Shown in pieces: positions 418-16,800 of a DNA stretch of 18,380 bases. The DNA lies in contig CP070751.1 of assembly GCA_020348445.1 (NCBI GenBank), positions 1,204,823 through 1,223,202 of the forward strand, written 5' to 3'. A program made the position numbers and the translations under genes. This DNA is from Thermoplasmata archaeon (GTDB lineage Archaea > Thermoplasmatota > Thermoplasmata > GCA-020350865). Numbering within the stretch: position 1 is the stretch's first letter; each line of letters opens with the position of its first letter. The notes under the pieces were generated by a model, which was given only the letters and a program-made list of their open reading frames with translations, was not told the DNA's origin and did no database searches.

Positions 418-3048
418 TCAATTCCCTATGAGGACCATGATATCACCCACTGTCAGGGTGTCCATTTTTCTACCATGGACTGAATAGGCCCTCTCGATGT
501 CCACAAATTCGCCGGTAATAGGTATTATCTCCCCACTTTTGAGGGTAATTTGATATCCCTCACCCTCCATGGCAAAAGAGACTTCTTGGGCATTGGCATT
601 TTTCAGAATATCAGCTATTTCACCGCTTTTTTCCTTGAATTTGGGGCCCAATTTCGCGAAATTCGGCTTTACGACCACAGGTTTTTCTTCAATGTCGATT
701 TTATCCACGACTTTAAGTTCTTTAATTCTGATCGTGCTTACAATGTCCTTTTGGATTTCTGAAAACAGCCCTTTTCTATCTCCTGCTGCAATCTCAACAA
801 GAGCTACTTTGGAATTCAGAGGCAAACCCTTTTCTGATTTCCAATTTCGAAGTGCTGCAGTGATATCCTTAGCAAGTTCGCCCTTAACAATGGCATCCTC
901 ATCCTCCAAAACAGGATCCGGCCAGCCTGATAGGTGTAGGCTTCTTTTACCGTCTAAATCCTTGAAATAGATATGATAAACCTCCTCTGTAATATGAGGC
1001 AGGAAGGTGGCGAACATCTTGGCCATCCCCAATCCTATGGTGAAGAGGGTGTATTGCGCTCCTTCATCCTTTTTATCATATATCCTATACTTCACAAGCT
1101 CGATGTAGTGATCAGCAAGCTCATGCCATAAGAAATTCTCCATAGCCCTCATTGCCCTGTCGAATTGATATTCGTCCAAATGGGTAGTGACCTCGGAAAG
1201 AACCTTTGAATATCTTGAGAGGATCCACTTGTCAATTGTGCTGAGACTCGATCTGTCAAATTCCTTCTTGCCCTCAATTGCCTTGCCTATGAATGACTCT
1301 AAATTCCAGAGCTTGGTTGTCAATCTCACTCCACGTTTTATGTCCCTCATCCTAAAAGGATTGTCCATTCCAAGGGCGCAGGTTGCGGCATAGTAGCGCA
1401 TGGCATCAGAGCCGTACTCATCGAGAATCTCAATTGGGTCCACTGCATTGCCCTTGGAGGCGTGCATGGGTGTGCCGTCCTCTGCAAGGATATAGGCCCC
1501 GATCATGATATCGTCCCAGGGCTTTTGGTCCACAAGAAGATGCTCCCTTATTATAGTGTAAAATGCCCAGGTCCTGATGATGTCCTGGGCCTGGGGTCTA
1601 AGGGACATGGGGTACAGCTTCTTGAACATGTTCTCGTCCCTTTTCCAGAAGGTGTTGAAAAGTGGGGATATACTGGAATCCATCCAGGTGTCGAACACAT
1701 CCTCGCATCCCTTTAATTCCCCACCGCACTTTGGGCAGGAATCAACTGGAGGGGGCGTTATTGTGGGATCAATATAGCACTGCTCCTCCTTGGCCACAAC
1801 GATTCCATCACATTTTGTGCATTCCCAGAGTGGAATCGGGGTGGCAAAATACCGCTGCCTGGAAATCACCCAATCCCAGGTTAAGGAATTTACCCAGTCC
1901 TGAAGACGGATTTTCATGAACTCAGGGAACCATTTGACTTCATCGGCAATCCTGAGTACGTCCTTTTTAAAATCCAGAAGCTTCAAGAACCACTGGGGAA
2001 CCTGTAAGAACTCGATTGGTGTCTTGCATCTCCAGCAGGAACCCACACTCTGGTCAAGCTCCTCCTGTTTTATCAGAAGGTCCTGCTCTTTCATGTCGTT
2101 TATGATGGCCTCCTTGGCATCTGCAATGCTCATGCCCTTATATTTTCCTGCTGCTTCTGTCATCTGGCCGTACTCATCAATACCCTTTTCGATTGCCAGG
2201 TTATAGCGGAAAATCCATTCAAGATCGTCCTTGTCACCTATTGAGCATATCATCACTATGCCTGTTCCGAATTCTGAAAGAACTTTATCGTCTTCCACAA
2301 CTTCAACTGCCCTGTTATACACAGGAGTTAAGAGCATCTTCCCGGCAAGTTCTCCTGCTCTGTCGTCCCTGGGATTTATTGCTACCAACTGACATGTGCA
2401 GAGTAGCTCGGGCCTTGTGGTAGCTATTATGACATCCTCGTCCCTATCACTGATTTTGAACTTGATATAGTTCAATTTAGTCTTTCTGTCCTGATACTCA
2501 ACCTCGGCATCAGCCAAGGCTGTCATGCATCTTGGACACCAATTCACAGGGTGCTCGCCCTTGTAGATCAGGCCCTTGTTAAAGAGCTCGATAAAGGAAA
2601 TTTGGGTGAGCCTGCGGTAGTGCTCGGCATCTGTCTGATAATAGATACTGGGATCCATGCTCTCCCCAAGGATCTTGAACTGCCTTGTCATCTCAGCGAT
2701 GTTGGCATTGGCAAATTCCCTGCAGAGTTTGATAAATTCCTGTCTGTCTATGTCCTTTCTCGTGATACCCAATTTTCTTTCCACCCTTTCCTCAATGGGT
2801 ATACCGTTGGTATCAAAACACAAGGGAAAGAACACATTGTACCCGCGCAGCCTTTTGTATCGTGCTGCAAAATCTATATGAGTATAATGCACGGCATGGC
2901 CAACATGCAAACCACCAGAGGCGTATCTGGGTGGATTGTCAACACTGTAAATTGGCTTATCGGACTCAGGATCGAACCTGAATAACTCGTTCTCGTCCCA
3001 GTAATCCTGCCATTTCTTCTCGATTTCCTTTTGATTTAAATTGGGCAT
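418..3048 (-). CDS. valS: Valine--tRNA ligase (class Ia), archaeal type, 876 aa
   Basis: HIGH motif HVGH (2896..2907) within DNPPRYASGGLHVGH; editing-domain motifs TTRPELL and GTGIVMIC; DWVISRQRYFATPIP; DVFDTWMDSS; QAQDIIRTWAFY; Zn-knuckle CxxC pairs; degenerate KMSKS (PMHASKGN); C-terminal anticodon-binding helices. Confidence 0.96.
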   Translation of the reverse strand: MPNLNQKEIEKKWQDYWDENELFRFDPESDKPIYSVDNPPRYASGGLHVGHAVHYTHIDFAARYKRLRGYNVFFPLCFDTNGIPIEERVERKLGITRKDIDRQEFIKLCREFANANIAEMTRQFKILGESMDPSIYYQTDAEHYRRLTQISFIELFNKGLIYKGEHPVNWCPRCMTALADAEVEYQDRKTKLNYIKFKISDRDEDVIIATTRPELLCTCQLVAINPRDDRAGELAGKMLLTPVYNRAVEVVEDDKVLSEFGTGIVMICSIGDKDDLEWIFRYNLAIEKGIDEYGQMTEAAGKYKGMSIADAKEAIINDMKEQDLLIKQEELDQSVGSCWRCKTPIEFLQVPQWFLKLLDFKKDVLRIADEVKWFPEFMKIRLQDWVNSLTWDWVISRQRYFATPIPLWECTKCDGIVVAKEEQCYIDPTITPPPVDSCPKCGGELKGCEDVFDTWMDSSISPLFNTFWKRDENMFKKLYPMSLRPQAQDIIRTWAFYTIIREHLLVDQKPWDDIMIGAYILAEDGTPMHASKGNAVDPIEILDEYGSDAMRYYAATCALGMDNPFRMRDIKRGVRLTTKLWNLESFIGKAIEGKKEFDRSSLSTIDKWILSRYSKVLSEVTTHLDEYQFDRAMRAMENFLWHELADHYIELVKYRIYDKKDEGAQYTLFTIGLGMAKMFATFLPHITEEVYHIYFKDLDGKRSLHLSGWPDPVLEDEDAIVKGELAKDITAALRNWKSEKGLPLNSKVALVEIAAGDRKGLFSEIQKDIVSTIRIKELKVVDKIDIEEKPVVVKPNFAKLGPKFKEKSGEIADILKNANAQEVSFAMEGEGYQITLKSGEIIPITGEFVDIERAYSVHGRKMDTLTVGDIMVLIGN

Positions 3049-3079: not shown

Positions 3080-3181
3080 GGTTTTTGCGGTTTTTATCGG
3101 TCTTGTTCCATCTCCAAATTAAAGTTTATCTATTCTTTAATGCATAACTAACTGATTCTTTTCATTAAAACTTTTAGAGAA

Positions 3182-4168
3182 TCATCTGGTCCAAGCTCTG
3201 AATTTAAACTCCGAACCTTTCTCAATAAGAGATCCCAAGAAATATCCTGCGATGACAAGATACAGTAAACCTAAGACGCCAATCACTCCAATTATATCGA
3301 TAATAAGCAGCGGGCCCAAAATCCATGTTAGGGTCATATCAAGGATCATGCTCTTTACCCAATCACTTCTTCTGCGCATTCTAAATAGATTCCTTATCAG
3401 ATATCCCTGGGTGGGAATTCCGAATATCAAAAACAATATGAAATAAATTGGAGATACAAGATGAAATAGAAGGGGCAATAGGTAAATACCGTAAAATATG
3501 AACTTCAGGCACAATGCATAAAGAATAAGGGGATCCTTTAACTTTAATTTCTTACCAAGAGTGTAATTCAATCTGCTGGCCATAGATGGTATATTCAACA
3601 TTCTATCTGTATCCACATCCTTCATCTCATTCTGCCACTGATTAAATACCAAAGCCAACAATATACTGATAAAAACTATCCAGGATATGGGTGTGGGATG
3701 TCCAACGGCAAAGACCCCGAAGAACGAATAAAGTGCATATCCAAACGGAAATGTGATTTCGAAAGCTATGGGAACGTATTTTGCTTTGAAGCTGTATAAG
3801 GCTACAACAGCATATGAAATCACGAATACCAAGGCTGCTTTGGTTGGGAAAAAATACACTATTAGAAATAGGTTGAAAAATAGGCCAAAGAGGACAAATG
3901 CATAAGCCTCTATGGTACTAATGGCTCCTTTAACAAGAGGTTTTCCTGATAATCCCGGGACCTTGGAATCCAACTTCTTATCGCAGATTTCATTTAACGC
4001 GGCACCTGAGGAATGCGAGAAGAAGCCGATGACGATCAATAATATAATATCCCGGGGGGGAACATTTCCGCAGGCCGTATATGCACCCAAAATCGAAACT
4101 GCAGCAGTTGTGGAGGCACCCTGAATCCTCCCTAAGCCCATGTAATATCTGAATTTGTCAAATGTCAT
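3182..4168 (-). CDS. UbiA-family prenyltransferase 1 (integral membrane, 328 aa)
   Basis: Two Asp-rich motifs, NEICDKKLD (3968..3994, followed by KPLVKGAIS) and NEMKDVDTD; many hydrophobic segments; SD-like GGCGGAG 8 nt upstream of the ATG. Confidence 0.88.
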   Translation of the reverse strand: MTFDKFRYYMGLGRIQGASTTAAVSILGAYTACGNVPPRDIILLIVIGFFSHSSGAALNEICDKKLDSKVPGLSGKPLVKGAISTIEAYAFVLFGLFFNLFLIVYFFPTKAALVFVISYAVVALYSFKAKYVPIAFEITFPFGYALYSFFGVFAVGHPTPISWIVFISILLALVFNQWQNEMKDVDTDRMLNIPSMASRLNYTLGKKLKLKDPLILYALCLKFIFYGIYLLPLLFHLVSPIYFILFLIFGIPTQGYLIRNLFRMRRRSDWVKSMILDMTLTWILGPLLIIDIIGVIGVLGLLYLVIAGYFLGSLIEKGSEFKFRAWTR

Positions 4169-4224
4169 TATGTATTCTCCGCCATTTTTCTCTTACCCAT
4201 TACTTCCAACCTTCGATCACCAAT

Positions 4225-4247
4225 AACTATAAAGAACTATAAATATA
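4225..4247. promoter_or_regulatory. Divergent promoter region with tandem AACTATAAA repeats / TATA boxes
   Basis: AACTATAAA at 4225-4233 and 4235-4243 (10-bp period), running into TATAAATATA. It lies in the 97-bp gap between divergent UbiA 1 and the radical SAM gene. Confidence 0.5.
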
Positions 4248-4265
4248 TCCAAATAATTTGATACA

Positions 4266-5756
4266 TTGGCAATCGAAATAATTCTTTTAGAGCAATTGCC
4301 CTTGGCTGAGGGGACAAACCTGTTTGACAGGATGACCACAAATCCGATAGGTCCAGGGCTTTTACAACTGGAAGCTGTTTTGGAAAAGGAAGGTTACAAG
4401 GTAGGACTCGGCAGTGTAAAGGATATAAAAGATATTGATAAGATTCTCACACGCCAACCAAATACAGGTATAGTTGGAATTTCCTGCATCACGGCAAACT
4501 GCCAAGACGCATATTATGCTTTGGATCACATAAAAAAGAATTACGAATTGCCCACTATAATTGGGGGCTGTCACGTTACTTTTCTTCCCGAGGAGGCTTT
4601 GAATCATGCCGATGTTGTTTTCGTGGGTGAAACAGAAATTTCCCTCCCCGAATTCCTAGGAGAAGTAGAGCAAAAGGGCTGGCCAAAGAAAAAAATGGAT
4701 AGAATCCGAGGTGCGATTATCGATGATAACGGAGTCAGAATAAATCCCAGGTACATGGTTAAGGACTTGGACTCACTTCCCCACATAAAATACACTTACA
4801 CAGTTGTCAAAACAACATCCACTCCATTGGATGGATTTCTTGCCAAGGTATCAGCAAAAGCACGACTCTCCACCTCCAGAGGATGCCCCTTTGCCTGCGA
4901 GTTCTGCCAGAGCTCAAGAAAGGAAGGCATGAAATGGAGGGCGAACAGTGCAGAGTATGTTGTGGACTCCATGGAACTTTTCGAAGAGAAAGGTGCCAAC
5001 ATGATACAGTTTGTGGACGATAATTTCTCCTTGGATGCAAAACGCATTGAAAAGATATGCGACTTGATCGAAAAAAGAGGATTGGATGTATCCTGGGCAT
5101 TTTTCGGGAGATTGGATTGGATTGCAACCCATCCAAATCTCTTTCACAGGATGGTTGAGAATGGATGTATGTCCATATTTGTTGGGATAGAGAGCGGATC
5201 TCAGAAAGTGCTTGACGGCATGAAGAAAAAGCTGACAGTGGACCAAATAACAAAAGGTTTTGAGATAATCCATTCCGAAAAAGCAGTTTTCAGTACAGGA
5301 TCCATGATAATTGGTGCTTATGATGATACAGAGAAGACAATTGATCATTCAATTGATTTTGTAAAGAAGCTGAACCCTCACTTTGCGCTATTTACAATGA
5401 TGACTCCCTACCCTGGGGCGCCATTATATGATAGATTGGTAAAGGAGAATAGAATAAACACATACGACTGGAGCAAATACACTGGTGAAAATCTGGTATT
5501 CGATCACCCATTTATTGATAATGACTTGGTTCAGTACAAACTCTACGAGGTGTACAAGGAATATTATTCAAGGGAGGAATGGCAGGATAAAATCAATAGT
5601 TGGGATGTTCCTTCAGATATGTTACCTTCGCTTCCCCAATTCATTAAAAATTGGCTTTTCAGGCGGGTGATCTCCAACGTTAAGAAGAAAGGTTTCAAAT
5701 ACTGGTCCAAGGTTTTAGAGGATTACGAGGTAGAAATGGGACGAGATGTGTCTTAA
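4266..5756 (+). CDS. Cobalamin-binding radical SAM enzyme (class B-like), 496 aa, TTG start
   Basis: N-terminal B12-binding domain pattern (IEIILLE...PGLLQLEAVL...GISCIT...IIGGCHVTFLPEEAL...DVVFVGETE); CxxxCxxC = CPFACEFC at 4884..4907; FVDDNF; GIESGSQKVLDGMKK; TPYPGAPLY. The TTG start is supported because it keeps the first beta-strand of the B12 domain. Confidence 0.92.
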   Translation: MAIEIILLEQLPLAEGTNLFDRMTTNPIGPGLLQLEAVLEKEGYKVGLGSVKDIKDIDKILTRQPNTGIVGISCITANCQDAYYALDHIKKNYELPTIIGGCHVTFLPEEALNHADVVFVGETEISLPEFLGEVEQKGWPKKKMDRIRGAIIDDNGVRINPRYMVKDLDSLPHIKYTYTVVKTTSTPLDGFLAKVSAKARLSTSRGCPFACEFCQSSRKEGMKWRANSAEYVVDSMELFEEKGANMIQFVDDNFSLDAKRIEKICDLIEKRGLDVSWAFFGRLDWIATHPNLFHRMVENGCMSIFVGIESGSQKVLDGMKKKLTVDQITKGFEIIHSEKAVFSTGSMIIGAYDDTEKTIDHSIDFVKKLNPHFALFTMMTPYPGAPLYDRLVKENRINTYDWSKYTGENLVFDHPFIDNDLVQYKLYEVYKEYYSREEWQDKINSWDVPSDMLPSLPQFIKNWLFRRVISNVKKKGFKYWSKVLEDYEVEMGRDVS

Positions 5757-5768
5757 GTTATTTTTGTA

Positions 5769-6794
5769 TTATTCCATGTATTTCCCAAATTTCAGTTCTG
5801 CCCCATGCTGCAAAAAGGATCCAACAAAGTATCCCAAGACAATATATAAAATGAGATACAAGATTATGGCCCATCCAACGATGTCAATGATCAATATCGG
5901 CCCTAGGATCACCGTGGACTCTACATCCAAAACCAATATTTTCACCCATCTTCCCCGAGTATGCTTCCCGAAGAGCAGGTATATCACGTAAGCCTGGGTT
6001 GGAAGGCCCACCACCAAAAATATAAAGAAGTAAAGAGGCAAGCCAAATAAGGATAATGGGTATATATCTGTTGGAGGAACAAGATCAAATAATATGGGTA
6101 AAAAATAGACAATAAGAAATGCAAATTTAAGGGTCAGAGCATAGATTATCAAGGGATTGGTTAGGGTAAGTTTCTGACCAAACCTGTACTTTAAAAGATA
6201 AGGCACACTCTTTATCCCAAATCTCGAATCTGTATCAACATCTTTCATCTCGTTAATCCATTGATCAAAAACAGTAGCTATGAAAATTACAGCTATCATT
6301 ACATAGCTTATTGATGTGGGTTGCCCAATTGCATAAAGCCCATATATTGTATAAAACACACCATTTAAAGGGACCATGACCTCGCAGATTCCTGGTGTGC
6401 GTTTCAGTTTTAAATTGTATATTGCGATGACTCCTCCCGACAATAAAAAGAATATCGTAGCCATCAAAATCGGATAGAGGTAGATAGTAAGAACTGTACT
6501 TAGCACGAGCATTGCCATTGACAAAGAAAGAGCTGTTTTAGGGGAAATGGTACCTGTAACCAAGGGTTTGTCTTTCAGGGTGTCAACAGTTACATCTAGC
6601 TTCATATCGCAGTATTCATGAAATGAGGCTCCGGCCATATGCGCAAAAAATGCGATTACAGTGAAATAGATCCAGTCGATAGGCTCAACAGATCCAGTTG
6701 ATGTGTATGCACCGATCAGTGCAACTCCTGCAGTAAGGGATACACCCTGAACCCTGCCTAGGTCCATATATGCTCGGAATTTCTCCAATGCCAT
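5769..6794 (-). CDS. UbiA-family prenyltransferase 2 (paralog of 3182..4168)
   Basis: Motifs HEYCDMKLD (6594..6620, followed by KPLVTGTIS) and NEMKDVDTD. Gap-free alignment with UbiA 1 gives 46/84 identities over the N-terminus (hand count). Start placed at ATG 6794 by alignment to the paralog; alternatives are ATG 6797 and GTG 6806. Confidence 0.88.
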   Translation of the reverse strand: MALEKFRAYMDLGRVQGVSLTAGVALIGAYTSTGSVEPIDWIYFTVIAFFAHMAGASFHEYCDMKLDVTVDTLKDKPLVTGTISPKTALSLSMAMLVLSTVLTIYLYPILMATIFFLLSGGVIAIYNLKLKRTPGICEVMVPLNGVFYTIYGLYAIGQPTSISYVMIAVIFIATVFDQWINEMKDVDTDSRFGIKSVPYLLKYRFGQKLTLTNPLIIYALTLKFAFLIVYFLPILFDLVPPTDIYPLSLFGLPLYFFIFLVVGLPTQAYVIYLLFGKHTRGRWVKILVLDVESTVILGPILIIDIVGWAIILYLILYIVLGYFVGSFLQHGAELKFGKYME

Positions 6795-7031
6795 CATATA
6801 ATCCACGCCATTTAGACAGATAGCAATTTTTCAATACTAAAACAAGATAATAACCCTGGGTCATAAACCTGTTGCTTACCATGTAAAGTAATCCTATATG
6901 AAATAACAATTATCATCAATTTACATGTTAACGGCCAATACTATATATTGAAATGCTATTTATACTAGATATAGAACTGTAATTTACACTGAGGAATCCA
7001 TAGTCTTTAGGCTCTTGAAGGAGAAAAGCCC

Positions 7032-7949
7032 ATGGGAGATTGGGGACAACGAATTATCGGGCATATAAAATTAACAAGACCCCCTGCAGTAATCTGGTTG
7101 GACTTTATTCCGGCTGTCACATTTTTTGTGGTAATTACCCATCATCTCCCATCATATTTCTATCTTCTTTTCATCCTTGGGATAATGTGCTTTGATATGA
7201 CCTCAAGCACTGTAAATGACATAGCCGATTTTGAAAGCGACAGAAGAAGCATCGAGCCCAATAGAAAACACAGGCCCATTGTTATGGGTGTCATCTCAAA
7301 GAAGGCGGCATCTTACAGGACCATATCACTCTTTGTTGTCGGTTGCATAATATTCGTATACCTGTCCTTTTACAGTTCCCCTTTGATTTTCCTGTTTGCA
7401 TTGTTACTTGGACTTTTGGGATTACAGTACTCCCTTCCACCATTGGAAATGGGAGCTCGTCCCATGCTTTCTACAATTTTTTGGCCTTTTTTATGGATTA
7501 TCTACTATTTAGCGCTCATATCATATATTGGATTGGAGAAGGTGGAATCAGGTTTACTATTTCTTGGATCAGTAATATTATTTATGGGACTTGCAGAGCC
7601 TCTTGCAAAGGACATCCGGGATGTCGACAACGACAAAAGAGGAGGAAAGATAACAACAGTTGTGCGCTTTGGAGTTCCAAGATCTGCAATAGCGAGTTTC
7701 ACTCTTTCTATAATGGGAAGCTTGATGTGGATTTATTCTTTGTATGTCATTTCAACTAACAATTACTACATTCTTTTAATTCTGTTGATGGTCTTTGTTC
7801 TTTGGAATGGATACTGTCTAGCTCTTACGAGGCGTTTAATTTCTTCTTATCAGAAAAAGGATGGAAGGAGTATGCATCTAGGATACATCCTGACTTTCAC
7901 TGTGGCCAATTTTCTTACCATCGCCTTCTTTTTAGCCAATAAACTATAA
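7032..7949 (+). CDS. UbiA-family prenyltransferase 3 (DGGGP-synthase/ChlG-like motif pattern), 305 aa
   Basis: NDIADFESD...RPIVMGVIS and KDIRDVDNDKRGGKITTVVRFG; multiple TM segments; SD GAAGGAG upstream. Subfamily not resolved by eye. Confidence 0.87.
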   Translation: MGDWGQRIIGHIKLTRPPAVIWLDFIPAVTFFVVITHHLPSYFYLLFILGIMCFDMTSSTVNDIADFESDRRSIEPNRKHRPIVMGVISKKAASYRTISLFVVGCIIFVYLSFYSSPLIFLFALLLGLLGLQYSLPPLEMGARPMLSTIFWPFLWIIYYLALISYIGLEKVESGLLFLGSVILFMGLAEPLAKDIRDVDNDKRGGKITTVVRFGVPRSAIASFTLSIMGSLMWIYSLYVISTNNYYILLILLMVFVLWNGYCLALTRRLISSYQKKDGRSMHLGYILTFTVANFLTIAFFLANKL

Positions 7950-8021
7950 ATTGCGACCAACATATACGGGTTTTCATATCAAGACTCATCTATCTAAAGG
8001 ATGTTCCTTACGATGAACCTC

Positions 8022-8031
8022 TATATATAAA
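8022..8031 (+). promoter_or_regulatory. TATA box for the guaAA / release-factor transcript
   Basis: TATATATAAA about 30 nt upstream of ATG 8060; GGGAG SD-like at 8052-8056. Confidence 0.55.
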
Positions 8032-8059
8032 CATCTATGCTTGATTACATTGGGAGACG

Positions 8060-8629
8060 ATGATTTACATGAGAGTGTATGTCGTTGACAACGGCGGCCA
8101 GTGGACCCACAGAGAATGGCGAGTTCTAAAGTACCTTGACGTGGATACCAAGATAATACCCAATACCACGCCCTTTGAGGAACTTGAAGTGGATGGTCTC
8201 GTTCTTTCAGGTGGAGCAGGCAGTACCGTAGGTGATTCCGTTCCTGGTAAAATCGATGATTACCTTGAGAAAGCTGATTTTCCCATTCTCGGAATATGCT
8301 TTGGCCATCATTACATGTCTTTGCATTTTGGTGGGAAGACAGGAACTGCCCAAACTCCCGAATTCGGAAGGACCGAGATTCTCGTGGATGATGAAGACGA
8401 GCTGTTTTCGGGCCTGCCAAATAAGTTCAATGCATGGGAATCCCATAACGACGAGGTAAAGGAACTTGGAGAGGATTTTAAGATACTGGCCCACTCAGAG
8501 AGCTGCAAAGTTCAAGCCATTAAGCATACAAAGAAGCCCTTATATGGTGTGCAGTTTCACCCTGAAGTTGAACACACAGAACATGGATACGATATCTTCA
8601 AGAATTTTCTGAAACTATGTGAGAAATAG
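8060..8629 (+). CDS. guaAA: GMP synthase (glutamine-hydrolysing) subunit A, class I glutamine amidotransferase
   Basis: VVDNGGQWTHREWRVL N-terminus typical of archaeal GMP synthase A; LVLSGG; nucleophile GICFGH; AWESHNDEV; QFHPEVEHT catalytic His-x-Glu. Alternative start ATG 8069. Confidence 0.9.
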   Translation: MIYMRVYVVDNGGQWTHREWRVLKYLDVDTKIIPNTTPFEELEVDGLVLSGGAGSTVGDSVPGKIDDYLEKADFPILGICFGHHYMSLHFGGKTGTAQTPEFGRTEILVDDEDELFSGLPNKFNAWESHNDEVKELGEDFKILAHSESCKVQAIKHTKKPLYGVQFHPEVEHTEHGYDIFKNFLKLCEK

Positions 8630-8652: not shown

Positions 8653-9750
8653 ATGCTGGAAAAAATTGACTTACGAGAGTTATCAGAGATAAGCGATACA
8701 AGACCATCTTTTGTTAGTGTCTACTTGAATGCAATGGATGACCGCACTGAAAAATTCCTTAACAAAAGAGAAAGGGATTGCCTCAATGCATTGAAACAGG
8801 AGAGGGAATTAAAAGAGATATTTAAAAAGAACATGGAAAAGGTCCGGGAATTTCTAAAAACCGGGAAGACTGGAGGAGCAAAATCATATGCCATATTTTC
8901 ATCCTCACCTAAGAACTTCTTTTATGGCTACGAGCTGCCTTTAGAGGTGGAAAACCAGCTCATAGTTGATACCTCACCCTACATTCGACCCTTGGCCATG
9001 TTGGAGGAGGAATGGGAATCCATGGCAATAGTTCTTCTTGACCACAGCAATGCAAGACTCTACATGATATCTTCTGCAATGATCCAGGATACAAAGAAGA
9101 TGCACAAGGACATAATGAACAAGCACAAAAAAGGCGGCTGGTCCCAGATGAGATTTCAAAGGCTCAGAAAGGGCGCAATAGATCATTTCTTCAAGGAGGT
9201 CTCAGAGTACCTGGAGGGCTTTTTGGAGAAGGAGAATGTGAGAAGGATCATCTTGGCAGGTCCAGGTTCTGCAAAGAAGGAGTTTGCAGAGTACCTACCT
9301 GAACCGACCCAAAAAAAGGTCATAAGTATAATCGATGAGGATATAGATGTTCCAGAGGGGCAGCTTCTTTCAGATTCATTTGAAAATTTCTTTAAGAAAG
9401 AAAGGGAAGAGGAAAATGAGATGGTGGCAAATCTAAGGGCCGAGATTCTAAAAGGCGGCCTCGTGGCCTATGGAGTAGACGATACTTTGGCTGCCGTAAC
9501 AGAGGGAAGGGCAGAGCTGCTTCTCATAAACATGGGAAAAAGGGCAGTTGGTTGGAAATGCGAGTTATGCAAGATATTTAAACCCGGTTCTGCAGAGACA
9601 TGCGAAAGCTGTGGAAAGCCAGTATTTAATGTAGATCTTGTGGAGGAGTTGGTTGAGGCAGCAAAGAGCCTGGGAACCACCCTGGAGTTCGTAAAGGACA
9701 ACGAATTTTTAGATGAGCTGGGAGGAGTGGCTGCGTTTTTGAGGTTCTAG
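8653..9750 (+). CDS. Non-canonical aRF1/eRF1-superfamily protein (baeRF/VLRF1-like), 365 aa
   Basis: RNase H-like middle domain with HKKGGWSQMRFQRLR loop; ILAGP motif; C-domain GLVAYGVDDT...AELLL; Zn-knuckle CELC...CESC; terminal GGVAAFLRF. No NIKS or YxCxxxF motif. SD GGAGG upstream. Confidence 0.85.
   Translation: MLEKIDLRELSEISDTRPSFVSVYLNAMDDRTEKFLNKRERDCLNALKQERELKEIFKKNMEKVREFLKTGKTGGAKSYAIFSSSPKNFFYGYELPLEVENQLIVDTSPYIRPLAMLEEEWESMAIVLLDHSNARLYMISSAMIQDTKKMHKDIMNKHKKGGWSQMRFQRLRKGAIDHFFKEVSEYLEGFLEKENVRRIILAGPGSAKKEFAEYLPEPTQKKVISIIDEDIDVPEGQLLSDSFENFFKKEREEENEMVANLRAEILKGGLVAYGVDDTLAAVTEGRAELLLINMGKRAVGWKCELCKIFKPGSAETCESCGKPVFNVDLVEELVEAAKSLGTTLEFVKDNEFLDELGGVAAFLRF
9706..9750 (+). 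repeat. Direct repeat copy 1 (attL-like), the 3' end of the release-factor gene
   Basis: TTTTTAGATGAGCTGGGAGGAGTGGCTGCGTTTTTGAGGTTCTAG; the 25-bp core 9714-9738 is identical to 10838-10862. Confidence 0.92.
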
Positions 9751-9770
9751 TTAATAGGACCAATAAATTA

Positions 9771-9825
9771 TTAGGCCCTACCCTTTTTCTTTAAAGCGAA
9801 ACATTTATAATAAAGTAGGGCCTAA
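9771..9825. promoter_or_regulatory. fic promoter (BRE/TATA 9793-9811) flanked by two TAGG-N-CCTA palindromes forming an 11-bp inverted repeat
   Basis: TTAGGCCCTAC (9771-9781) and GTAGGGCCTAA (9815-9825) are exact reverse complements. AAAGCGAAACATTTATAAT lies between them, with the TATA about 23 nt upstream of ATG 9834. Confidence 0.7.
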
Positions 9826-9833
9826 CTACTATT

Positions 9834-10811
9834 ATGGTGTATCATAAGATAAAGAAAATCAAAGGGAGAACCTACAATTACCTAATCGAAAGCTTCAAGT
9901 TCAGGGGGAAGGTTCACCAGATCCAAAAGTACCTGGGAACCAAAAAAATGAAGAGGATTGAAATAGAAAATGCCAAGGAAAAACATAGAGATTGGTTCCG
10001 TTATGAGACTATCAAGAAGAAAGCCTCCTTTTCAGCCTTGGAATATAAGTCTGCTATCCTTTCATCCAAACAACTTACACAACTCGAGACCATCCGTTAT
10101 ACCTTTCGTAAATTTAAAAGAAACTTGCATCCCAATGAAATAGAGAGACTTGAGAGGGATTTTGATATCGGTTATGTTTATTCTACCACTTCAACTGAAG
10201 GGAACACATGCACGCTCTCTGAGGTTACACGAATTTTGGAAAATCATTTAACTCCTAAAGGAAGATCCCTAAGAGAAATATATGAAATTAGGAACTTTGA
10301 GGAGGTACTGAGATTTCGGAAGGGATATAAAGGTGACCTCTCAAAGAAATTCATACTAAAACTTCATGAGCTTGTTATGAAAGATATCGATCTATATACC
10401 CTTGGTAACTTTCGGAGAATAGAAGTGGCTATATTAGGAAGCGATACCACTCCTGTGCCTGCTATCTTTGTGGAGGAAGAGATTGACAAACTCCTTAAAT
10501 GGTATCACAAGAACAAGGGTAAAATTCATCCATTGGAACTTGCATGCGAATTTCATGTGCGATTCGAAGCAATTCATCCTTTCACCGATGGTAATGGAAG
10601 GGTGGGAAGGGAGATTTTTAATTTCATGATAACCAGATCAGGTTTCCCTTCATTCAATTTCAATGTAAAAAAGAGGGATGAATATCTTGATGGCCTTGAA
10701 ATGGGACAGAAGGGAGATTTGAATCCTATCATGGACTACATCATGGATAATTTTATAAAACAGATGAAGGTAAGACTCAAAAATAATCCTTTGATGAAAG
10801 TCTTTGATTAA
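9834..10811 (+). CDS. Fic-domain protein (325 aa) with N-terminal basic domain and internal inhibitory motif
   Basis: Canonical Fic motif HPFTDGNGRVGR at 10575..10610; (S/T)xxxE(G/N) inhibitory motif TTSTEGN at 10185..10205; basic N-terminus KIKKIKGRTYNYLIESFKFRGKVHQIQKYLG. Confidence 0.93.
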   Translation: MVYHKIKKIKGRTYNYLIESFKFRGKVHQIQKYLGTKKMKRIEIENAKEKHRDWFRYETIKKKASFSALEYKSAILSSKQLTQLETIRYTFRKFKRNLHPNEIERLERDFDIGYVYSTTSTEGNTCTLSEVTRILENHLTPKGRSLREIYEIRNFEEVLRFRKGYKGDLSKKFILKLHELVMKDIDLYTLGNFRRIEVAILGSDTTPVPAIFVEEEIDKLLKWYHKNKGKIHPLELACEFHVRFEAIHPFTDGNGRVGREIFNFMITRSGFPSFNFNVKKRDEYLDGLEMGQKGDLNPIMDYIMDNFIKQMKVRLKNNPLMKVFD

Positions 10812-10881: not shown

Positions 10882-13800
10882 TTAGAGCTCCCTGTTCTCT
10901 GTATCCTCGATTTCTTCTGTTTTACCTTCAGGCTCATCATCGAGTTCTGTAGGGCCTTCATCATCAAGCTCCTCGGTTACTATTTCTTCTTCAGGTCTTA
11001 GGTCCTCGTCATAGACTTCCTCTTCTATGACCTCCTCTTCTAGCGGTTCCTCTATTTCCTCGTAACCTTCTTCTCCCACCAGTTCCTCTTCGACCTCTTC
11101 TTCACCATAGCTTTCTTCGATTTCCTCTATTTCTTCAGGAGCTTCTTCTCCTGCAACTTCCTCTTCTCCTTCAGCAAGGCCTTCTTCCACTTCTGGGATC
11201 TCCTCTGCTTCCTTTTTCTTTCTGGTGAGCAGGAAGAGCAATATGACGATGATTATGATCACCACTATGATAATGAAGGGCAGGACATTCATCTCCTCTT
11301 CATCCTCTTTTTCAGCAGTTCCTATGGTAACAGAATAATCATCACTTATGAAGGGATTTCCTGCAGTATCTGTGACCTCGAAGTAGTAATGCAGAGTCCC
11401 GCTTTCTTCGGGGGTGATTGAGCCTGAATACGTACCTTCCGATTCTTCAAGGGTCAGGGGCTTTTTCTTGGACTCATCATCACCGAACCAGTACCATACC
11501 TTAACCTCTGAGACACCTATGTTATCTGAGACATCGATTTGGAAGCGGAATTCTTTCCCCTTCTCACCGGATGTATCGGAAGCTGGATTGGATATGCTTC
11601 CGGGATCGTCATCAGTAACAGTAATGACGGTTGATGTTGCCGTATTCGGGTTGTTGGCACTGTCATTGAACACAACAAAGTATGTGATGCTTGCCAGGCT
11701 GTCTGAGGGTATGTGGATGGTGTAGTTGTAGTAATCGCCGTCCTTGACCAAATCATATAGTGTGCCATCGATGCTGATTTTGTAGTAAGTTATACCGACA
11801 TTATCTGTTGCGTGGAGGCTTACAAGCAGGGAGTCGCCAGTTGTTCCTGCATTTGGATGTAGGACCCAGTCGAACTCGGGCTGCTCGCTATCAGTGGGAA
11901 GGGTCACAGTTATCACGGTGTCATCAGTTGTTATAGGATTACCAGCAGCGTCTTTGAATGTAACGTCGTATGTGATGCTGGCGGAACTTCCAGGTGGAAT
12001 ATTGATCGTATAGTTGAAGTAGTCCCCATCTTTGATCATGTCATAAGTTGTTCCATCGATATTGATTTTATAGTAAGTAACTCCGATATTGTCTAATGCC
12101 GTGAGGCTTACCAGAACCGATTCTCCTGCCGTGCCGGTTGAGGGATGCAGGACCCAGGTGTATGAGGGAGAATCATCGTCCGTGACAGTTATTGTGGTGT
12201 CATCGGTTATGTTATCGTTGCCCCACCAATCACTGAATGTTATATTGTAGGTTATACTGGCCGTGCTGTCACTTGGAATATTGAGGGTGTAATTGTAATA
12301 GTCACCATCCCGGCTCATTTCGTGAAGAGCTCCATCTATAATGATCCTATAATATGTGATGCCAGTATTATCTGTAGCCAGGAGACTTATAAGCACGTGT
12401 TCGCCCGTTGTACCTGTGGTAGGCCGTAAGACCCAGGTATAGGTGGGTTTTTCATCATCTGTGCTGGTTATTGTTAATACGGTGTCCTCAGTGGTAATGG
12501 AGTTACCCTCATTATCTTTGAATGTGACATTATACGGTATATCCTCCGTACTTTCAATCGGAATATTGAAGGTATAATTATAGTAATCACCATCCTTTAC
12601 CATATCGAAGGTTGTTCCATTGATGGTGATGGTGTAATTCGTGACTCCTATGTTATCTGTCCCTATCAGGCTAACAGTAAATGTACCTCCTGCCAAACCG
12701 GTAGTGGGTTGTAAAACCCAAGTGTAGGTGGGCTCGTCGTTATCCGTGACCGTGATTGTGGTACCAGGTATTGTATTTGGGTTGTTCGCGCTATCATTGA
12801 GAATGATAGAATAGATGATGTCTGTAATGCTGTCAGGCGGAATATCAATGGTAAAGTTGTAGTAATCACCATCCTTATCAAGATCATAGAGCATGCCATC
12901 GACATCGATCTTATAATAGGTAATCCCGATATTGTCTGTTGCCTGGATGCTCACCAAAACGAATTCACCGGTAGTTCCACCCATTGGCTGAGAGACCCAT
13001 ACAAATGTTGGTGCATCGTTATCTGTGATAGGCACGGTTGTTGGTGTGGTGTTCACCCAGAATCCACCTGAATCAACTGCGGTGAAGTAATATTCTATTA
13101 ATCCGACATAGTCAGAAAGCATGTCTTCGTAGAGCCAGTACGGGCCTGTTCCATTCATTGTTAGATTCTTGTACATTACCACGCCTTCAGGGCGGTAATT
13201 GACATGGACGCTGACGATTCCCATGTTGTCTGATGCATTGATCTCGAAATAAAAGGGATCACCTGTTGTGCCTGAGGTATCAGAATTGTCTGAAAATATG
13301 GTGGGAGGAATATTGTCGATAAGTGTGATAATGACGAGTTGTGTATGGTCCATTGTAGGATTGGGAGTCGCAACTCCAAAGGCTCCTGATTTGGTGGCAT
13401 TTGCAGTATAGTCATTGAAGTTCTTGATGATCCCGGTAATATTCTCCTGATATTCCATGCAGATAATGAAGAAAGCCTGTCCGTCTGAGTTAGCGGTTGA
13501 ATTGAATATCTCGGTTTTATCCACATCGGCAACTGCAACTATGGCTTCGGGAACAGGTAGGGCGACCTGACTCTGCACTAGGACGTTCATGAACCATGCA
13601 ACTTCAAGAAGTGAATCGTAGTCCTCGAAGAACACACTTGCATTATTAAATGTGGAATTAATCATGAAGAGGTACGAGGCTGAGTAAAGACTGATGTCCA
13701 AAACTGCACAGTTAGCAATCGAACCATTGAGCATATGGTGTACAACAGAATTGTTGGAATATATTCCGTAATCGAAAGTATCTATGGTTAATTGGGTGGC

Positions 13801-16800
13801 AAAAACATCGGTTATATTGAAGAGTAACAGGCCTTTGGAGCCTGCAGATCCCCCGATGATATCGCATTCGTTTATATGGAACACAGGCTGTTGGACAGTT
13901 GGGTCTGGATTCTGCCATTCGAAGAGCATGCCAAAGAGTCCCCCGTCGAATGTGTTTCCTTGGATGATGACATCCCCCACCAGTAAGGTCGGGGTGCCTG
14001 TCACACCCCTTGGTGTATCAACAGTTGTATAGTTGAAGGCACTGAATGCAGAATCAACCAAGTTATCAACAATCATCATGCCAGGGAAAACCACTGTAGA
14101 GTTGTCCATTATGTTAATGCAGCGGTCCAAAACGATGTCGATTCCGGTTATACTCGCGGTTATCGTATTTTGTTTTAAATGGATATCTTCAATGGACAAC
14201 CTTGAATCATTATGGATATTGTAGGCGTTGTCAATGATGTAGCATTTGATCCCTGTTCCGTTTGTGCAGGTGATGTTGTTCTTCTCTATGACAACCGGAC
14301 CCATATTAGCCTGAGATTCATTCCATAAGTTGTAACCGAAATATTCCATTCCAAAATAGATCCCATAGTCAAATGCGGTGATGGTATTGTTCGCGATAGA
14401 TATACCTGTGGCGTTCACTGATGCGAAATCCATGAGCTCTTCGGCGACATCGTATCCATAGAAATAGATGCCAGTACCTTGGGGGACAGTGATAATGTTG
14501 CTTTCCAACCTTATCTCACCAACCTCAACTACTGCCCGGCATTCGGATAAGCCTAAAACATCGAGATAGAATCCGATTCCCTCGTAATAGAAGTATATGC
14601 CATAACTTCCATTGGAAAAAATGTTGTTATTTGACACTATGTAATCTCCAAAATGTGCCTGGGATTCGTCAGAGACATAATTCCCCGAATAATAGGGGCC
14701 AGTATAGATCCCGTAATGCGTGGGGGACCAGGATGTGATATTGTTGAACATGATGTAACAGCTGCCCACCTCGAAGTAAGAATAGTCGTATATGTGACTA
14801 CCGAAGTTCTCCCACCACCATGACTCTATGCCACTCCCTCCTGTTGAGTTCAGTGTGTTGTGCATTATCTCGTTCTTGCCAAAATGTGCACTTGAATTGC
14901 CATACATGTATGAACCAAAATACGTTGGCTGAAAGTATATTCCATTATTACCGGCGGTGATTGTGTTGCCTATGAAGCTGAAGTCGCCAATGGTGAAGGT
15001 TGCACTATCGTACATGTAATATGCCCAGTTGTATGGTTGGAAATCGATTCCATCTGCCAAAGAACCAACAATGATCTCATTGCCGTTGAATTCGAAGTAC
15101 CCTAGCTCTGCATGGCTCTGGTCGTACATCTGGTATCCCACATATCGGGGTTGATCGAAACTGATACCGTCGGAACCAAGATCCGTGGTATTTATTACGT
15201 TGTTGTTTATCAAGAAGTTCCCAAAGAACACCATGGAATCATTGTGCAGATCTGCCGCTAAGTCATGGAAGGACGCAAAGCGTATCCCCCAATCCTTTGA
15301 TGTGATATTGTTACGGAGGAACTCGAAATCCCCGAAGTGAGCACTGGAGCCGTTGTACATCTGATAACCCAACCAGTAGGCTGAAACCTCAAAACCAAGC
15401 CCGTTCACACAGTATATGATGTTGTCATTCATTTGAACATGTCCCATATTGAAAATGGAGCCGTCATACATGCTCGAACCTAGCTTATCCAAATATAATT
15501 CGATACCAGCATAATAACCTCCATTGAAAAGTAACACATCATTATCGTTCAGCTGGATACTACCCATGGTGACGGATGAATTACCCAAGGTATAATAACC
15601 GATCTCGCCTATTTCAATGCGCATCCCATCATTGTAAGCTTCAATGATGGTGTTATCATTGAATAGGAAGTTACCATATGAGGCCGTGTTTTCGCCATAC
15701 AAATAATTACCCAAATTGTAGATATCACAGAATATTCCTTCATCCCCATCGGTGGTGTTTACTGTATTTCTGCAGACCTCTATGTTCCCGTTCATTGTGA
15801 ACGTTGCGGTGTCATACATATTTGCACCATAGTTGGATATCCAGTTTATATGAATACCATTTGCATGGGTTCCGGTTCCAAAGATTACTGTTACAGTATT
15901 GTCGTTAACCAGTATGGGCCCCACAATGGCCTGTGATTCATTATACATCTCGTAACCGACATATTGGGTTAGGAAGAGAATTCCGTAACTGTCCACAGAA
16001 GCAGGATCCTGACCGGAAGTTATCGTATTGTTCAATACAATTATACTTCCCATTTCGAATGTGGACATATCATGCATATCGTAACCTGCGTACTCAAACT
16101 GGCAATAGATACCCTGATTTTGTGATTCGATGATGTTGTTTGAAACCGATAAATCCCCAAAGGTTGCGCTTGCGGTTCCTGTCATAGTGTAGGCCAATTC
16201 GTAGGCATTGATATAGATACCGTGAGAATCATCACAGGTGATGTTATTATCATTTAATTGGATGTGGCCCAAATTAACTGAGGAGTTCCCAAACATCTCG
16301 TAACCGTTCTCATAGAAGAGGAAATAGATACCTTTATAAAAGCCACTGGGAATGGATCCGGCGATTATCTCGTTGCGGTTGACCTCGATATTTCCAAAGG
16401 TCGCTAATGAATTGTTATGGACATCAGAGCCCCAGTATAGGATGGCATTGATGTTAATACCGTGACCTGTGGAATTAACTATATTGTCACTGAACAGGAA
16501 ATTACCAAAGTGGACTTCTGCATTATCATACACTCTCCAGGCCCATGAATCCATGTATATATAGATACCATAAAAACCAATTGTGCTTATGCTATTCCCT
16601 GCAATTTCAAAGTCTCCCATAGTAAATACTGATTGGCCGTAGATTTGTTTCCCCATATCATACCAGTCGCCAAAGTCTATACCATAGCCATTCGAGTTGT
16701 TTATTATGTTGTCATTTAGGAAAAAGTGTCCAAATGTAACTTGATTATCTCCCCTGAGATAATTGCCCCAATACCCCATGTTACTCATTATGATGCCCCC

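Follow-up and report, generated by a model that had tools for sequence, protein, structure and literature searches.

A four-gene block of three UbiA prenyltransferases and a B12-binding radical SAM enzyme, inserted between valS and guaAA in a Thermoplasmata archaeon: a possible cassette for an isoprenoid membrane amphiphile

The membrane lipids of archaea serve widely as biomarkers of environment and palaeoclimate, and many of their structures are without assigned genes. Work since 2019 has shown that much of their diversity is supplied by radical S-adenosylmethionine (SAM) enzymes of the B12-dependent kind, and those listed as acting on archaeal lipids are Grs, Gmm, Cgm, Pgm and Ted (10.1101/2025.10.20.683597). 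GrsA/B, Gmm, Cgm, Pgm and Ted join a B12-binding domain to a radical SAM core, act on unactivated carbons of the isoprenoid chains in archaeal membranes and are widespread in several archaeal groups; methylation is one among several chemistries known for the class, and UbiA or prenyltransferases are mentioned 0 times in that account (10.1101/2025.10.20.683597). In this work we analyzed a stretch of 18,380 nucleotides (hereafter the window) from a Thermoplasmata archaeon (GenBank assembly GCA_020348445.1, contig CP070751.1, positions 1,204,823 to 1,223,202), in which three UbiA-family genes (UbiA-a, UbiA-b and UbiA-c, encoding P0001, P0003 and P0004) and one gene for a radical SAM protein (P0002) lie between valS and guaAA. 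P0002 resembles the described archaeal lipid enzymes in class, and differs from them in its distribution, with five orthologues found. The initial annotation of this DNA, made from the letters alone, knew of no described pathway with such a gene set; in agreement, a full-text literature search found no archaeal cluster of UbiA and B12-binding radical SAM genes. We propose, with a probability of roughly 0.55, that the four genes are an accessory cassette which would build an isoprenoid membrane amphiphile and tailor it by radical chemistry, both the substrate and the chemistry being deduced.

The window's genome is a single contig of 5.16 Mb (G000) and was compared with four sister genomes of the same genus (G001 to G004). 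In G001, G002 and G003, valS and guaAA are direct divergent neighbors separated by spacers of 137, 189 and 92 bp, respectively; in the same order, their valS proteins share 92, 82 and 88% identity with that of the window, and guaAA is 81-83% identical across the three. The match to the sister spacer stops near position 3097 of the window, returns as 16 nt at 7936-7951 and is continuous from 8067. Since homology to the sister spacers breaks at 3097 and resumes at 7936 or 8067, approximately 4.9 kb with exactly these four genes was inserted. The four genes are thus one en bloc insertion, and the site is empty in three genomes of the same genus. In G001, the accessions of valS and of an eRF1-like gene beyond guaAA are two apart, which is consistent with guaAA alone lying between them. 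No recombinase, integrase or transposase open reading frame (ORF) was present in the island, no terminal repeats were found at its edges, and the genomic-island signature of tRNA target, flanking repeat and integrase was absent from the locus. The GC content of the island (0.37-0.43) is near that of the genome (0.415). At the right edge, the last codons and the stop of UbiA-c (7936-7951) coincide with the 16-nt match, CAACAAACTATAAAT, to a TATA-containing element upstream of guaAA in the sister genomes, and guaAA of G000 has a different TATA-like tract nearer its start. It seems that the insertion displaced the former promoter of guaAA.

All three UbiA proteins are well above the PF01040 cut-off of 34.2 bits (Table 1), and their hydropathy profiles show the multiple transmembrane segments of polytopic membrane proteins. 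UbiA-a and UbiA-b are paralogues with 44% identity, and UbiA-c resembles them at the family level only. The described enzyme MjDGGGPS carries N62, D66-x3-D70, Y125...K130 and a third Asp-rich motif (PMC9385802). UbiA-a, which groups with the orthologues P0128, P0129, P0131 and P0137, has all of the corresponding elements (N59-x3-D63-x3-D67, Y125...K130 and K-D184-x3-D188), and the subfamily to which it belongs, named UbiA-X below, retains the motif set of MjDGGGPS. In UbiA-b, motif 1 reads H63-E-Y-C-D67-x3-D71, as it does in the orthologues P0125 and P0126; Asn occupies the first position in the 24 other aligned UbiA-X proteins, and a pattern search of 148 UbiA-X representatives, in 59 of which the motif was not resolved, found none with His there. 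UbiA-c keeps N61-x3-D65-x3-D69 and K-D194-x3-D198, and the motif-2 Lys is absent.

The structural model of UbiA-b is all-helical (predicted local distance difference test score, pLDDT, 91), and its matches in the PDB at E<=1e-3 are exclusively UbiA-family proteins. The best match is MjDGGGPS (6M31/7BPU; target-normalised template-modelling (TM) score 0.80-0.81), followed by AfUbiA, ApUbiA, UBIAD1 and DPPR synthase. The best NCBIfam model of all three UbiA proteins was the DGGGPS-like archaeal NF009523, at 62-79 bits against a cut-off of 269. In spite of this likeness, they differ from genuine DGGGPS: they reach at most 57.5 and 50 bits on the DGGGPS equivalogs NF009521 and NF009522, far under the cut-offs of 296 and 353, UbiA-X proteins are 40-70 aa longer, and UbiA-b has His at the position equivalent to N62. 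The genome's probable DGGGPS is another UbiA, of 278 aa, encoded beside PcrB/GGGPS at 3.915 Mb (245 bits) and placed in a clade separate from UbiA-X. Scores on the UbiA and MenA equivalogs were at most 55 bits for TIGR01474 (cut-off 275) and 43 bits for the MenA models (cut-offs 264-346). Comparison with a protein atlas returned generic UbiA clusters only, and a PDB sequence search gave weak matches for P0002 and P0004 and nothing for P0003. Indeed, none of the four island proteins reaches the curated cut-off of a named NCBIfam equivalog.

G000 holds 18 UbiA genes and 11 full-length genes for B12-binding radical SAM enzymes. In a tree of the 18 UbiA proteins, UbiA-a and UbiA-b fell in a five-gene clade (Shimodaira-Hasegawa-like approximate likelihood ratio test, SH-aLRT, 99), which we named UbiA-X and which, as judged by sequence, is a distinct DGGGPS-like subfamily without a prior name. 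When relatives were included, UbiA-X divided into two subclades, X1 and X2. UbiA-a and UbiA-b then grouped with the metagenomic protein P0130, and the sister of this group was formed by the X1 genes from families f1, f3 and f5. Recent duplication within the genome was rejected as the source of UbiA-a and UbiA-b, since both branch outside the X1 group of these families; for the same reason they are not recent copies of the X1 gene that this genus keeps next to a geranylgeranyl reductase (GGR) homologue. UbiA-c was sister (SH-aLRT 99, 43-44% identity) to the UbiA encoded at 452477-453412 of the genome. An exhaustive profile search of 1.84 billion proteins found 339 representative clusters of UbiA-X at E<=1e-30, and the subfamily is present in 17 of 401 sampled genomes of the class, among them 4/4 of family f1, 1/1 of f2, 3/3 of f3, 1/1 of f5 and 7/44 of f16. 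Three of the 339 clusters (P0271, P0272 and P0306, 616-642 aa) are fused double-UbiA proteins with tandem UbiA domains, the N-terminal half being X2-type and the C-terminal half divergent, which suggests that UbiA-X genes occurring in pairs function as a unit. Adjacent X1 and X2 genes were found in G006, G020 and G177, and tandem UbiA-X arrays in G001 and G031. The G001 array (L140:5510-8599) comprises three to four UbiA-X2 genes, one of them broken by an in-frame TGA, and an IS200-like/Mrr-like ORF lies just upstream.

Linkage of UbiA genes to B12-binding radical SAM genes recurs within the genome. Four of the latter lie within 3 kb of a UbiA in G000, vs. 0.28 expected (approximately 14-fold; P ~1e-4, 20,000 random placements), and this clustering exceeds chance. 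Of the five UbiA-X genes, four directly neighbor a B12-binding radical SAM gene, and the fifth lies 4 nt downstream of the GGR homologue, an arrangement (GGR-UbiA-X1) conserved as an operon in G001, G002 and G004. At locus B (3.113-3.116 Mb), a MenA-like UbiA, a UbiA-X2 and a B12-binding radical SAM enzyme are encoded in one compact operon, with 0 and 21 nt between neighboring genes. Locus D (4.322-4.324 Mb) is a convergent radical SAM/UbiA-X2 pair conserved in all of G001-G004. Both loci are like the island in pairing UbiA-X with a B12-binding radical SAM enzyme; locus B also shares with it a third, non-X UbiA, and locus D the convergent orientation with a short spacer. They differ from the island in that their UbiA-X proteins are X2-type and their radical SAM enzymes belong to another clade, and locus D is genus-wide whereas the island is not. 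At locus C, a B12-binding radical SAM gene is convergent to GGGPS and the probable genuine DGGGPS (245 bits). Altogether, 5 of the 11 full-length B12-binding radical SAM genes of G000 adjoin isoprenoid-lipid enzymes. These contexts, together with the single inserted block and the want of a named equivalog, support the initial annotation in its general reading, in that the genes look as if they encode one undescribed isoprenoid lipid or quinone pathway, UbiA-X recurring beside B12-binding radical SAM enzymes and GGR. The superfamilies involved are familiar, as is the overall scheme by which isoprenoids are tailored; UbiA-X, its pairing with B12-binding radical SAM enzymes and the cassette are undescribed. 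Small GTPase genes of the Ras/Roc family were seen beside the radical SAM/UbiA-X2 pair in G001 (L141:5994-6488) and beside UbiA-X2 in G003 (L144:5110-5988). In a further stretch of G000 (3342322-3347811, L149), a GT4 glycosyltransferase gene and a bona fide Tes (628 bits against a cut-off of 450) are divergently oriented, and a BchE-like B12-binding radical SAM gene (233 bits on the BchE model, under its cut-off) is convergent, 1.15 kb from Tes. Its product is the best in-genome paralogue of P0002 and a candidate for tailoring of glycerol dialkyl glycerol tetraethers.

P0002 passes the Pfam cut-offs for the radical SAM core and for the B12-binding domain (32 bits for PF02310; Table 1). Among 56 homologues, C207-x3-C211-x2-C214 is invariant and the GGxH motif (G100, G101, H103) nearly so. 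By these features P0002 is a class-B (B12-binding domain) radical SAM enzyme, which may bind cobalamin and transfer methyl groups, and, on sequence grounds, the catalytic motifs are intact in all four island proteins. AprD4, which ranks second among its fold matches, is a 1,2-diol dehydratase and no methylase; it has a B12-binding domain and is not known to use cobalamin. Its structural model (pLDDT 89) has class-B architecture, and the top PDB matches, at 13-18% identity, are MgmA, AprD4, OxsB, TsrM, CysS and TokK. MgmA (9CCB), AprD4 (6FD2), OxsB (5UL4) and TsrM (6WTE) resemble P0002 in architecture (query-normalised TM score 0.60-0.68); they differ from it in sequence (14-17% identity), and their own chemistries are protein methylation, diol dehydration, ring contraction and non-radical methylation, respectively. 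Because these chemistries differ, the class-B fold gives no reaction prediction for P0002. The best-scoring NCBIfam models of P0002, headed by HpnJ, include BchE and the ladderane model TIGR04072, which represent bacterial class-B enzymes of isoprenoid or tetrapyrrole metabolism; P0002 falls 3- to 5-fold short of the cut-offs of these three. Since models of unrelated function give nearly the same score (136, 78, 116 and 106 bits for HpnJ, HpnR, BchE and TIGR04072, against cut-offs of 578, 650, 481 and 360), the likeness is at the class level only. No Grs, Gmm, Cgm/Pgm or Ted model was among the NCBIfam matches listed for P0002. Hydropathy analysis found no transmembrane segment in the protein. 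Its strongest amphipathic window (residues 467-484; hydrophobic moment 0.63, net charge +6) lies within a C-terminal helix of the model (residues 458-490), similar basic amphipathic windows occur in the orthologues P0007 and P0008, and the modeled helix may serve as a membrane-interface anchor. In a tree of radical SAM proteins, P0002 grouped with P0007-P0009, and the enzymes of loci B and D were sisters elsewhere. Because these clades are separate, UbiA-X is linked to B12-binding radical SAM enzymes of at least two lineages.

When we looked for P0002 in other organisms, five orthologues were found among 5.8 billion proteins (91, 82, 52, 50 and 48% identity), and the next match was at 33%. No orthologue was found in G001-G004 or in 400 class genomes, where the only match scored 243 bits vs. 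975 for P0002 against itself, and a scan of genome contigs with P0002-specific peptide patterns returned just relatives of <=32% identity. A scan of metagenomes with more general patterns gave, among the matches listed, paralogues of ~30% identity. Co-location of the island genes in close relatives was judged from cluster members that sit on contigs of identical size. A contig size of 260,170 bp is common to a radical SAM gene, a UbiA-a-like gene, a UbiA-c-like gene and valS; sizes of 5925, 12575, 6584 and 5056 bp are each common to a radical SAM gene and a UbiA-a-like gene; and a size of 7415 bp is common to a C-terminal fragment of the radical SAM gene, a UbiA-b-like gene and a UbiA-c-like gene. 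These matching sizes suggest that the island stays intact in several close metagenomic relatives with 76-91% identity. Among more distant homologues, relatives of P0002 at 32-34% identity directly abut genes for SPASM-domain radical SAM proteins in two genomes of the class (L012 in G017 and L013 in G038) and on a metagenome contig (L030), where a gene for an LpxL-like acyltransferase comes next. This combination looks like a separate, recurring module of two radical SAM enzymes.

The pairing with SPASM proteins is one of several observations that could be taken to mean that the island genes share no pathway, and either came together by chance as paralogues of expanded families or include a radical SAM enzyme that modifies a protein or peptide unrelated to UbiA. 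The strong expansion of both families (18 and 11 genes) and the four separate transcription units of alternating orientation would fit such a view, as would the best structural match of P0002, the protein methylase MgmA, and one of its NCBIfam matches, ApyD, an enzyme of ribosomally synthesized and post-translationally modified peptides (RiPPs). We nevertheless consider it quite unlikely. The four genes arrived as a single block that stays together in close relatives, adjacency of UbiA and radical SAM genes is approximately 14-fold over expectation, the position of UbiA-a and UbiA-b outside the X1 group of the class shows that they are no local duplicates of the genus's gene, and no precursor-peptide-like ORF that would make a RiPP candidate was found in the island.

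A specific product had been put forward in the initial annotation, namely butanetriol or pentanetriol tetraethers, which P0002 might form by methylation of the tetraether glycerol backbone, with the UbiA enzymes dedicated to the modified backbone. B12-binding radical SAM enzymes are able to methylate sp3 carbons, the presence of Tes means that G000 makes tetraethers, NCBI labels the sister G001 as a 'Methanomassiliicoccales archaeon' metagenome-assembled genome, and the butanetriol tetraether methylase carries no assignment in the recent preprint (10.1101/2025.10.20.683597). The distribution of the genes speaks against this product and makes it most improbable. P0002 has the few orthologues described above, with none found in the sister or class genomes. 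The cultured producers of butanetriol tetraethers are methanogenic Methanomassiliicoccales; McrA is present in 63 of the 401 sampled class genomes, and neither P0002 nor UbiA-X occurs in any of them (0/63). G000 itself is without McrA, and the host of the cassette is one lineage of a non-methanogenic, sediment-dwelling genus that NCBI labels Methanomassiliicoccales. Moreover, labeling work reportedly placed backbone methylation after tetraether formation, which would leave no role for three prenyltransferases.

The partners of UbiA-X in other families bear on what the subfamily may make. In f16, five genomes (G121, G114, G076, G142 and G177; L180-L184) have a conserved cluster in which X1 and X2 bracket genes for a DGGGPS-like third UbiA, a sugar nucleotidyltransferase, a sulfotransferase, a GT1/GT28-like transferase and a PF01593 CrtI-like flavoenzyme, with a UDP-sugar dehydrogenase next door on the X1 side. 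This cluster looks like a pathway to a sulfated isoprenoid glycolipid. A fixed triad of X1, X2 and UbiA-c was considered and rejected; the third UbiA is DGGGPS-like in f16, MenA-like at locus B and UbiA-c in the island. The f16 layout also resembles clusters for C50 carotenoids, and the bracketed CrtI/CrtD-like flavoenzyme and GT1-type glycosyltransferase would suit UbiA-X enzymes that are C5 elongases of the lycopene-elongase kind (LyeJ/CrtEb), extending polyene or isoprenoid ends, with the radical SAM enzyme tailoring the extended chain. Another UbiA of G000, of the MenA-like clade, is adjoined by a gene for a CrtI-like flavoenzyme (128 bits) and then one for a phytoene/squalene synthase (164 bits) at 4.086-4.091 Mb (4086166-4090868, L185), a polyene or squalene cluster that was unexpected in an anaerobic sediment archaeon. 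Against elongation, a search for PF00494 gave nothing in G001 or in the three f16 genomes that bear the UbiA-X cluster (80-93% complete), none of the NCBIfam matches is labeled lycopene elongase, and the lineages concerned are anaerobic sediment dwellers. We regard this alternative as very unlikely. With phytoene/squalene synthase not found in G001 and the three f16 genomes, the wider idea of a polyene or carotenoid substrate for UbiA-X in general is weakened as well, and is unlikely.

A more serious rival, because of the paralogy of UbiA-c and the MenA-like partner at locus B, is a prenylated aromatic product, i.e., a variant quinone-like membrane compound. UbiA-c would then prenylate a shikimate-derived ring, P0002 would C-methylate the ring or its side chain, and the UbiA-X pair would add or remodel a second prenyl group. 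The sister relationship of UbiA-c to the UbiA at 452477-453412 and the union of MenA-like UbiA, UbiA-X2 and B12-binding radical SAM enzyme in the operon of locus B can be read in this way, and the GGR-UbiA-X1 operon fits a side-chain prenyl reductase too. On the other hand, the island holds no gene for ring synthesis or other quinone tailoring, all three UbiA proteins score best on the DGGGPS-like NF009523 and reach no MenA or UbiA cut-off, the fold of UbiA-X is nearest DGGGPS, and the f16 cluster contains genes for sugar and sulfate decoration typical of glycolipids. To our knowledge, the known menaquinone C-methylases MenK/MqnK are HemN-like class-C enzymes and not of the B12 type. On balance, an aromatic product appears unlikely, if less so than the other alternatives.

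From the observed insertion, recurrent linkage, intact motifs and lipid-type contexts, we infer the acceptor, the pairing of the UbiA-X proteins and the chemistry of P0002 in the proposed isoprenoid amphiphile pathway as follows. The three UbiA enzymes would ionize prenyl diphosphates and join the chains to a polar acceptor, with UbiA-a probably paired with UbiA-b. UbiA-c may add or prepare another prenylated part, and its class of acceptor is probably common to its paralogue at 452477-453412. The soluble P0002 would dock at the membrane surface via its basic amphipathic C-terminal helix and modify an unactivated carbon of the prenylated product by radical chemistry. C-methylation is the commonest chemistry of class-B radical SAM enzymes, and those acting on archaeal lipids also cyclise, desaturate and cross-link.

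Several observations weigh against this proposal. UbiA-c, as well as the MenA-like partner at locus B, gives a hint of aromatic acceptors. UbiA-b is without the conserved motif-1 Asn, having His in its place with the Asp residues kept, and its model favors DGGGPS over AfUbiA and ApUbiA by a modest margin. The radical SAM enzyme of the island also lies in a different clade from the other radical SAM enzymes linked to UbiA-X. Co-occurrence of the island genes was seen only among close relatives, and only via matching contig sizes. In approximately 100 loci of other organisms, which hold relatives of P0002 with 25-34% identity among the matches listed, a UbiA was nearby in one, and that one is from the same genus; the nearest non-orthologous relatives adjoin SPASM radical SAM, GT2 or LpxL-like genes. 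Since such loci rarely hold a UbiA, the substrate we propose follows from the partners of P0002 in the island and not from its wider clade. Lastly, the four genes form four separate transcription units with alternating orientation and no operon.

The coordinates of the island and its flanks are given in Table 1. The order and strands of the four genes between valS and guaAA were found as first annotated, and both of the divergent promoter regions that had been claimed (4169-4265 and 6807-7031) show TATA-like elements. A GGAG-type ribosome-binding site lies 8-10 nt ahead of the ATG of UbiA-a, and a GGAG approximately 10 nt ahead of that of UbiA-c. For UbiA-b, the ATG at 6797 is the likelier start because the orthologues measure 341-342 aa, and the TTG start of the radical SAM gene is supported by conservation of the N-terminus among orthologues. 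The T-rich spacer between the radical SAM gene and UbiA-b is, from its sequence, a probable shared terminator. A scan for sigma-70 promoters and terminators gave background levels only, the sigma-70 model being uninformative for an archaeon.

Table 1. Features of the island and its flanking genes (positions in the window).
Feature	Position	Strand	Remarks
valS	418-3048	-	NCBIfam NF009687 961 bits vs. cut-off 738; left flank of insertion site
Inserted island, ~4.9 kb, all four genes	3098..7935		right edge uncertain, 7935-8066
UbiA-a (P0001, 328 aa), subfamily UbiA-X1	3182-4168	-	PF01040 94 bits
TATA-like element AACTATAAATATAT	4236..4249	+	~17-30 nt upstream of the radical SAM start codon; putative promoter element
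Radical SAM enzyme (P0002, 496 aa), class B	4266-5756	+	PF04055 64 bits, PF02310 46 bits
T-rich spacer GTTATTTTTGTA, 12 nt	5757..5768		separates convergent radical SAM gene and UbiA-b
UbiA-b (P0003), subfamily UbiA-X1	5769-6797 (ATG, 342 aa) or to 6806 (GTG, 345 aa)	-	PF01040 88 bits
Divergent promoter region UbiA-b/UbiA-c, 225 bp	6807..7031		several TATA-like tracts ~6940-6975
UbiA-c (P0004, 305 aa)	7032-7949	+	PF01040 90 bits
guaAA (GMP synthase subunit A)	8060-8629	+	NF001975 256 bits vs. cut-off 198; right flank

Beyond guaAA, the window (8653-10811) encodes the eRF1-like protein (baeRF family 10, 84 bits, with weaker matches to mycobacterial ribosome-hibernation-factor models) and then a Fic/DOC-domain protein. 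The eRF1-like gene adjoins guaAA in G001 too, where it is annotated as hypothetical. The minus strand at 10882-18327 holds an ORF of 2481 aa, probably for a surface protein, in which Pfam recognized just a Big_7 Ig domain and, weakly, DUF5707.

The distribution of the island is narrow; the unit itself is clean and small. It offers a compact four-gene test case, bounded by an empty site in sister genomes, that links UbiA-X to a rare B12-binding radical SAM enzyme. If expression of the genes yields nothing, the locus would be another product of the expansion of UbiA, GGR and radical SAM families in this genus. As a bolder and distinctly tentative idea, UbiA-X pairs, a further UbiA and a B12-binding radical SAM enzyme might together define an unrecognized pathway by which archaea make membrane lipids of a new class, for example multiply prenylated and C-methylated or cross-linked amphiphiles not built by GGGPS/DGGGPS; in this lineage the pathway would travel between genomes as a self-contained 5-kb cassette. 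If expression does yield a new lipid, a function could be assigned to UbiA-X, with its 339 clusters mostly from uncultured archaea, UbiA enzymes would be shown to use a new class of acceptor or to act in pairs, and the capacity for lipid tailoring would be shown to move as a small cassette.

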